Source: Escherichia coli (GTDB taxonomy: Bacteria; Pseudomonadota; Gammaproteobacteria; Enterobacterales; Enterobacteriaceae). Taken from it: 64,000 bases of DNA. Location of the stretch: assembly GCF_050320075.1 (NCBI RefSeq), contig NZ_CP190018.1. One strand, given 5' to 3'. Positions 14,009-14,640 of this stretch are shown in pieces (the stretch's first letter is position 1; each line of letters starts with the position of its first letter). A program made the position numbers and the translations under genes. Below the pieces are notes generated by a model. The model ran no database searches. It was given only the letters and a program-made list of their open reading frames with translations, and had not been told where the DNA came from.

Positions 14009-14640
14009 TCTTCTGAATCACCGGGCGACAAAATATAACTGAGTTACAAATAAGTACCAGTCGAATGAGTATTGTATTAAGAATTTTTGAGTATCGCTGA
14101 TACAACCAGAAAGCAATGCTAGCGCAATATTATAGGGCCAGCAATTGAGATTATTAGCAAAAGCATGTTAAGAATTAATCACCGAATTTATATATTAATT
14201 ATAGTAAGGCAATGAGCTATTTTTGATAGTAAAAATAAAACAAGTTGATTTGATATATTAAATGAAAAAATTAATCTTGATGACAGTCTGATTATTGGTG
14301 AAGTTTACAGGTCAGTTTTTTTCGCCAGCTGTTAAAGGAATAGAATCGTCGTATAAAAAAGGTGTTCTGGGGCGTATGAAACAACATCTTCACCTTAATG
14401 GCGATACAGTTGGCTGAGAGCCAGCAGGGGGTAAATCACCTGCAAATAAACACGGCACATGCTGGCGCGCATATCGCGGATGCGTTGAGGACAGAAGAAC
14501 CGACAGGCGGATTCTTCAGCCGCTCATCGTCCATCACAAAACCTTTGACCAGGTATTCCTGAAGCCGATTGAATATTGAGCAGTAGAAAATATCTGGATT
14601 GACAGTATTACAAGGGATTGGAGAACGTCAGAAGAGGTAT

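Follow-up and report, generated by a model that had tools for sequence, protein, structure and literature searches.

What gave rise to the patch of GC-balanced DNA that lies between setC and a satellite prophage in this Escherichia coli chromosome? The window analysed here (64,000 nucleotides of contig NZ_CP190018.1) carries 1.1 kb without coding sequence after setC, followed by a P4-like satellite whose primase gene starts at 15140 (Table 1). In this interval, an earlier note made from the letters alone had pointed to about 170 bp on the minus strand, which it described as GC-balanced and as an uninterrupted frame of 56 codons without an obvious start, and which it took for a decayed gene fragment, possibly left by an earlier element at a tRNA hotspot. 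The compositional difference is real: the GC content reaches 53.5% in 14401-14570, whereas 14009-14399 has 31.7% and 14566-14642 has 36.4%. The sequence TGGCGGAAGATCACAGGAGTC was found exactly twice in the window, at the distal attachment repeat and at 25902-25922 inside selC (0 expected by chance), and the extent of the satellite was taken from this exact pair of 21-nt repeats. The distal repeat can be aligned with unoccupied selC sites, and 14566-14642 forms the chromosomal side of the distal att junction. In genomes with an unoccupied selC (the K-12-like layout), the patch is found on the same strand as selC, ~80 bp away from the 3' end of the tRNA gene.

Table 1. Features of the window between setC and selC. 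Positions are those of the window.
Feature	Position	Strand	Description
setC	setC 12824-14008	-	Sugar efflux transporter; from ORF and annotation; nlpA and yicL also lie in the window
AT-rich spacer upstream of setC	14009-14399		32% GC; not rhuM-derived
54-aa ATG-initiated ORF antisense to the relic	14398-14562	+	Open in this strain
rhuM relic, overall	14400-14565	-	~165 bp; RhuM family (Pfam PF13310)
Probable further decayed codons ~172-185 (AADYQPSLKE region)	14400-14436	-	Weak end of both the relic and the GC-balanced patch
rhuM relic, piece 2	14437-14487	-	Codons 155-171, QRIRDMRASMCRVYLQV; frame differs from that of piece 1
rhuM relic, piece 1	14487-14564	-	Codons 121-146 of the intact 345-aa RhuM, LQEYLVKGFVMDDERLKNPPVGSSVL
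Old rhuM leader and selC flank	14566-14642	-	Leader, 14566-14627; conserved 15-nt flank immediately 3' of selC, 14628-14642
Distal attachment repeat	14643-14663		21-nt copy of the selC 3' end, TGGCGGAAGATCACAGGAGTC
P4-like satellite prophage	14664-25901		Primase, icd-like, delta/ogr, psu, SIR2-family gene, integrase; supported by the att repeats and by RefSeq annotation of YZLc1-3, an identical strain
selC, tRNA-Sec gene	25902-25996	-	ARAGORN; integration hotspot

The peptide quoted in the note (...QEYLVKGFVMDDERLKNPPVGSS...) does lie on the minus strand of the patch, and no start codon compatible with a real gene was present. The frame is shorter than had been claimed: a stop at 14436-14438 leaves 44 codons open inside 14401-14570, and the run from stop to stop is 63 codons (14439-14627, minus strand). 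When the spacer, the 260-bp core or composition-matched blocks were shuffled with their composition preserved, 45-77% of trials gave 63 or more codons in a row without a stop, and ORF length was therefore rejected as evidence.

Homology, and not the open frame, indicates that the patch is the remnant of a gene. The only Pfam family matched by the raw 63-aa frame was Virulence_RhuM (PF13310; 25.5 bits, E=9.4e-6, 23 residues, positions 50-72), and an NCBIfam scan of the same frame matched no family. The Pfam score is below the curated gathering score of 33.7 bits because no more than 23 residues are in frame. A frame-repaired peptide of 57 aa scored 43.5 bits (E=3.1e-11, profile positions 51-108), and the version of the relic in K-12 scored 41.1 bits. 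In a tblastn search of the spacer with intact E. coli RhuM, the protein comparison that the note had proposed, two pieces were found, one with 24 of 26 residues identical (E=6e-14) and one, in a shifted frame, with 12 of 17 (E=4e-4). At the DNA level, piece 1 shares 96% identity over 75 nt with the intact gene of the O25:H4 strain 18044, and by blastn 14437-14565 aligns to that gene (locus L003 3922-4075) with a single 25-nt gap. It follows from the two tblastn pieces and the single gap that only the first 26 codons of the frame described earlier are ancestral. The tail of that frame ('...NASAICAPACAVFICR') is out-of-frame noise, and the ancestral reading goes on in the other frame as QRIRDMRASMCRVYLQV.

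The intact E. coli protein (WP_001280586.1, 345 aa) matches PF13310 in full (E=4.5e-118). In strain 18044, which is ST131-type, its gene begins 52 nt past selC, also on the selC strand, and thus has the same chromosomal position and the same orientation to selC as the relic, in addition to the identical residues given above. It differs from the relic in having all 345 codons, a different 5' leader and a gene for a hypothetical protein of 165 aa in place of setC. Could the patch nevertheless be a chance GC-rich stretch with a chance open frame and no gene ancestry? The length of the frame, which is not significant by itself, would be compatible with this reading. The Pfam and tblastn matches are significant, however, and the gene with which the patch shares 75 nt at 96% identity is intact in 844 genomes, where it occupies this very chromosomal position. 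A chance origin is already refuted by these results and has a negligible probability.

The relic retains PF13310 positions ~50-108 of 252, lacks a start codon, contains one frameshift and is truncated at both ends; it reads as a pseudogene fragment and not as a functional member of the RhuM family. Beyond piece 2, a gapped local alignment to the intact gene sets GCTGCTGGCTCTCAGCC opposite GCTGCCGACTATCAGCC, followed by indels, and 'PADSQPT' in the K-12 reading resembles 'AADYQPS' of intact RhuM. About 14 more rhuM codons are thus probably preserved in 14400-14436, in a similarity that is not significant on its own.

The lesions can be put in an order. About 51 of the 345 codons survive (121-146 and 155-171), which corresponds to ~15% of the protein. 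Compared with the intact E. coli copy, codons 1-120 and part of the leader are gone, codons 147-154 have been lost by a 24-nt in-frame deletion common to the window and K-12-like strains, and everything past codon ~171-185, where the setC-bearing AT-rich segment begins, is also gone. The 25-nt gap is the sum of the shared 24-nt deletion and a 1-nt deletion at 14486 that is particular to this lineage. K-12-like DNA has an extra C at 14486 and a TAA for the Lys codon at 14546. Owing to the extra base both pieces are in frame in K-12, which in turn identifies the 24-nt deletion of codons 147-154 as the shared ancestral lesion. These differences indicate that the shared truncations came first and that each lineage then acquired a disabling mutation of its own, a frameshift here and a nonsense codon in K-12-like strains.

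The 5' end of the relic was compared with E. coli E69, in which an intermediate stage is preserved. Positions 14566-14642 are 80% identical to a segment of E69 (locus L058 1185-1265) that is flanked there by a selC 3' repeat on one side and a stub of the rhuM 5' end (codons 1-13) on the other. Since the E69 leader is 80% identical to 14566-14627, the stretch of 62 nt that separates the relic from the selC flank is the former leader of the lost rhuM. The window reads ...CCTGAAGC/CGATTGAAT where codon 121 meets this leader, and the E69 leader reads ...GGTTAAGC/CGAATGAAT (slashes mark the junction). As AAGC is present in both sequences, the 5' deletion of ~400 bp carries AAGC microhomology. The conserved selC flank itself abuts selC in K-12-like and ST131-type genomes.

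On the 3' side, blastn homology of the window to the ST131-type locus ends at 14437 and restarts only in yicL (12700-12742). In relic-bearing genomes, the setC-bearing segment (~12743-14436) takes the place of the 3' two-thirds of rhuM. It is missing where rhuM is intact, and the gene for the 165-aa hypothetical protein is found there instead. The relic dates the neighbourhood of setC as a replacement of the rhuM 3' end. For the spacer 14009-14399, blastn found no similarity to the ST131-type locus. [quoted passage not shown] Integration of the P4-like satellite into selC came later and moved the relic 11.3 kb away from the tRNA gene.

The 165-aa hypothetical protein (WP_000509815.1), encoded between yicL and rhuM in strain 18044 (L003 2182-3396), had no Pfam or PADLOC match. 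setC is absent in 844 E. coli genomes, and setC and intact rhuM are apparently mutually exclusive in the genomes inspected.

We searched 5,426 complete E. coli genomes by megablast. Strain YZLc1-3 was 100% identical over the whole spacer, and thousands of further genomes matched at 95-98%, all with 'rhuM: RhuM family protein' annotated under the match. In YZLc1-3, the PGAP pseudogene corresponds to window positions 14437-14564 and is described as 'frameshifted; incomplete; missing N-terminus and C-terminus'. Together with the protein and DNA homology, this annotation at the same coordinates of an identical genome confirms the decayed gene fragment suspected in the earlier note and names the gene as rhuM. 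For a K-12-like genome whose selC is unoccupied, the PGAP note on the rhuM pseudogene reads 'internal stop; incomplete'. The relic is the same feature as the rhuM pseudogene that PGAP places between setC and selC in many RefSeq genomes, K-12-like ones included. The window differs from K-12 in carrying the 1-nt deletion instead of the nonsense codon, and the P4-like satellite between relic and selC. The relic is thus real, ordinary and already annotated in public genomes, and in this sense already known. A literature search for yicT, a possible K-12 name for the pseudogene, gave unrelated matches only, none joining E. coli and a pseudogene.

A 129-nt core was matched in 4,506 of the 5,426 genomes. 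The relic form (at least 90% identity) was present in ~3,660-3,666 genomes and the intact form, at ~75% identity to the core because it is without the 25-nt gap, in 841. The full ST131-type locus, with intact rhuM directly downstream of selC, was found in ~844 genomes. The note had proposed a comparison with other E. coli selC flanks and had allowed for ordinary intergenic DNA that has no protein similarity and occurs equally at unoccupied selC sites. Protein similarity exists, as described above. The same sequence is indeed present in strains with an unoccupied selC, including K-12-like strains, and the comparison places the relic in ~3,660 of the 5,426 genomes.

Does the patch retain a function? 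Between the window and a K-12-like genome, the identity was 98.3% for setC, 97.4% for yicL, 96.0% for the AT-rich spacer and 95.4% for the rhuM relic, which is the least conserved of the four segments compared. The relic thus appears to diverge like neutral DNA, as expected for the decay of dead sequence. An Rfam search of 13900-15300 with E values up to 1 yielded no family and only two sub-threshold chance matches to eukaryotic miRNAs, and a promoter scan showed no enrichment of promoter-like sites. Two terminator-like hairpins lie on the minus strand within the relic (14470-14455 and 14404-14390; 0.4 expected). They are 5-bp consensus matches and were judged to be noise.

The hairpins, and the position of the patch next to the H-NS-bound promoter island upstream of setC (PMC3661553), could be taken to mean that the patch was co-opted as a cis element, either as a terminator or processing signal of selC in unoccupied strains or as a distal regulatory region of setC. 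We consider such a role very unlikely. The relic is less conserved than the rest of the region and matches no Rfam family, and the hairpins reach only the quality just described. Moreover, 11.3 kb of prophage separate patch and selC in this strain with no compensation seen, and the arrangement of relic and setC is wholly absent in ~844 genomes.

A small protein encoded by the patch, either in the 63-codon minus frame or in the 54-aa ORF on the plus strand, is exceedingly improbable. Both frames are open in this strain, but ORFs of such length arise in 45-77% of the shuffles. The minus frame is without a plausible start and passes from ancestral to out-of-frame sequence midway, and in K-12-like DNA it contains a stop. 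The plus-strand ORF diverges in K-12 past its 11th residue, owing to the 1-nt indel. Since it lacks conservation there, we rejected it as a small-protein candidate. We conclude that the patch is very probably a non-functional relic of a RhuM-family gene that was once located directly downstream of selC and co-directional with it. The lack of function is read from the decay of the sequence.

How did the lost rhuM come to lie beside selC? The earlier note's suggestion of an earlier element at the tRNA hotspot was examined through intact copies elsewhere. When species-representative genomes were scanned for the motif GFVMDDERLKNPP, at least 120 loci in many phyla were obtained. Among the matches listed, tRNA-Sec is found upstream of rhuM and co-directional with it at 12 of the 35 Enterobacterales loci, and the rhuM start is 52-850 nt from tRNA-Sec in eight of these 12; none of the ~31 other proteobacterial loci scanned, again among the matches listed, has a tRNA-Sec by rhuM. 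The genera with selC-rhuM are Escherichia, Pseudescherichia, Enterobacter, Erwinia, Serratia, Yersinia, Morganella and Providencia.

Past the rhuM stop, ~125 nt are conserved in E. coli, Pseudescherichia vulneris, Erwinia (MAG) and Serratia sp. Ag1 (locus L003 in E. coli, loci L015, L082 and L111 in the others). This block consists of a CCCC...GGGG hairpin, an AT-rich arm and a partial selC 3' repeat 102-128 nt past the stop. In P. vulneris the repeat has a perfect core of 16 nt, extended to 19/20, and the shuffle p is ≤0.03 in all four genera. In ST131-type E. coli it is a degenerate 35-nt selC 3' repeat together with a 13-nt selC flank, 112 nt past the rhuM stop, so that rhuM is inside a repeat-bounded interval of 1.2 kb. 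A repeat at a fixed distance, in a block conserved across four genera, likewise places rhuM inside a repeat-bounded interval. In Enterobacter ENT03 and RIT418, Providencia rustigianii and M. morganii, a search for a selC repeat after rhuM gave nothing above shuffles. The AT-rich arm beside the repeat is similar to the distal arm of the P4-like satellite in this window. An integrase is absent, and there is no room for one, in the ST131-type, P. vulneris, Erwinia, Enterobacter ENT03, Morganella and Providencia modules (52-850 nt from selC to rhuM). The compact module formed by the intact gene comprises selC, rhuM, the hairpin, an AT-rich arm of ~110 nt and the partial selC 3' repeat.

The tandem arrangement in E. 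coli E69 (CP089930.1, L058 1100-3010), which was obtained from the motif scan, bears on the same question. An older rhuM relic and a newer intact copy lie there in tandem with a selC repeat between them, and two copies split in this way require a second insertion at selC. The old part reads, in gene direction, selC 3' repeat (TGGCGG-AGATCACAGGAGTC), 15-nt flank, leader and rhuM stub (codons 1-13).

By analogy with the intact copies, the lost rhuM may have arrived on a selC-targeted integrative element, an origin that we regard as rather probable. The argument has to be made by analogy because the relic's own 3' side is deleted and a distal repeat cannot be shown there. A distal tRNA repeat is seen at the intact copies of ST131-type E. 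coli, P. vulneris, Erwinia and Serratia, and in the window the 3' side has been replaced by the setC segment; blastn at word size 7 found no distal selC repeat between relic and setC. The earlier suggestion is therefore plausible as to an element at the tRNA gene, with indirect support from the intact copies 3' of selC with their partial selC repeat and from the E69 tandem. The relic is peculiar neither to this strain nor to its prophage. In its place beside a tRNA gene, the relic resembles the tRNA-linked scars of genomic islands of P4 or CP4 type, and intact copies are bracketed like these by the tRNA gene and a partial 3' repeat. It differs from them in that the rhuM module is without an integrase and the relic without a surviving distal repeat.

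Alternatively, rhuM could have been inherited vertically and could always have been the neighbour of selC in Enterobacterales, the selC repeats being scars of other islands. We consider this possible and somewhat doubtful. The adjacency of selC and rhuM across eight genera from Escherichia to Providencia, and the compact modules without integrase, would fit such a history. The identity to E. coli RhuM also falls roughly with taxonomic distance, from 87% in E. albertii to 85% in Erwinia, 77-79% in Enterobacter and 67-71% in Providencia and M. morganii; within this series, however, Erwinia is closer to E. coli than Enterobacter is. The fixed distance of the selC repeat past the stop, in a block conserved in four genera, and the E69 rhuM copies separated by a selC repeat also argue against vertical descent.

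If the lost gene came on an element, the 'empty' selC of K-12 and most E. coli might itself be the scar of a compact, integrase-less rhuM cassette that was delivered repeatedly across Enterobacterales (twice in E69, and in Pseudescherichia, Erwinia and Serratia). We put this forward tentatively. If true, rhuM would be mobile defence or toxin cargo dedicated to selC, and would be more than one gene of Salmonella SPI-3. In itself the relic matters little, and its modest value is that of a marker: the reference 'unoccupied' selC attB already contains what an earlier acquisition of rhuM left behind. Mildly new is only the selC-rhuM-repeat module, which is conserved in several genera of enterobacteria.

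The order of SPI-3 from selC begins with sugR and rhuM (PMC9251186). Salmonella SPI-3 rhuM is the founding member of PF13310 and belongs to the same family at the same tRNA locus, a likeness drawn by family and gene order and not by sequence. SPI-3 is an island of 17 kb with many other genes, unlike the relic. The 'virulence' label of RhuM comes from Salmonella phenotypes and not from known biochemistry. RhuM-like domains have been proposed to be toxins acting with restriction-modification and PrrC-like systems (Anantharaman et al. 2013, PMC3710099), and are found in restriction-modification neighbourhoods, often fused to Doc (PMC3710099). Intact E. coli RhuM matches the PADLOC family PDC-S05 (PDLC04852) over residues 1-343 (E=2.8e-173). 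PDC-S05 is a phage-defence candidate, and the match belongs to the intact orthologue; the relic, with ~15% of the protein, would be unable to act. Our literature search found no experimental paper on phage protection by the E. coli RhuM orthologue. Should RhuM be confirmed as a defence toxin, the module would be a compact and trackable defence cargo tied to one tRNA hotspot.

Several other selC loci were seen in the course of the survey. In gene direction, the order in E69 is P4-like end, att, flank, DUF4942 fragment, intact rhuM, degenerate selC repeat, flank, old leader and 13-codon rhuM stub. The stub is cut by an unrelated ORF of 348 aa, for which no Pfam match was found. In Escherichia albertii NBRC 107761 (locus L010 11271-14050), selC is followed by a truncated tyrosine integrase (266 aa), a DUF4942 gene and a rhuM that runs off the contig end and encodes a protein with 87% identity to that of E. 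coli over 341 aligned residues. This arrangement looks like a collapsed island between selC and rhuM. In the E. coli genomes S1-IND-01-B and E02 (loci L005 and L006), which have the ST131-type flank on the yicL side, rhuM is missing and the islands end at the same degenerate selC repeat. The E02 island spans ~18 kb from selC to the repeat and that of S1-IND-01-B >20 kb. Both carry CbtA/YeeU, antirestriction, DUF932 and DUF4942 genes. E02 additionally carries retron-type HNH, AAA ATPase and ABC-three-component genes and has kept the last ~14 rhuM codons.

The resident satellite carries the primase gene at 15140-17473, an Icd-like gene, delta/ogr (20809-21054), psu (21078-21641) and the integrase gene (24576-25739). 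A SIR2-family gene of 906 aa (21843-24563) lies between psu and the integrase gene, which we take to be the position where P4-like satellites carry variable anti-phage cargo. The octamer TGTTCACC occurs 14 times in the window (~2 expected), with five copies clustered at 14826-15089 and six at 19805-19908; the five-copy cluster lies inside a 122-nt direct repeat (14792-14913 and 14973-15094). These clusters look to us like the P4 crr and ori iteron sets, presumably bound by the primase. Farther along the window, at ~30294-37237 between yicI and yicH, lies an accessory sugar-utilisation cluster with genes for a BglG-type antiterminator, PTS fructose-family IIA, IIB and IIC components, two aldolases, a ROK protein and a lyxose/mannose isomerase. 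As yicI and yicH are, we assume, adjacent in K-12, this cluster would be another variable insertion.
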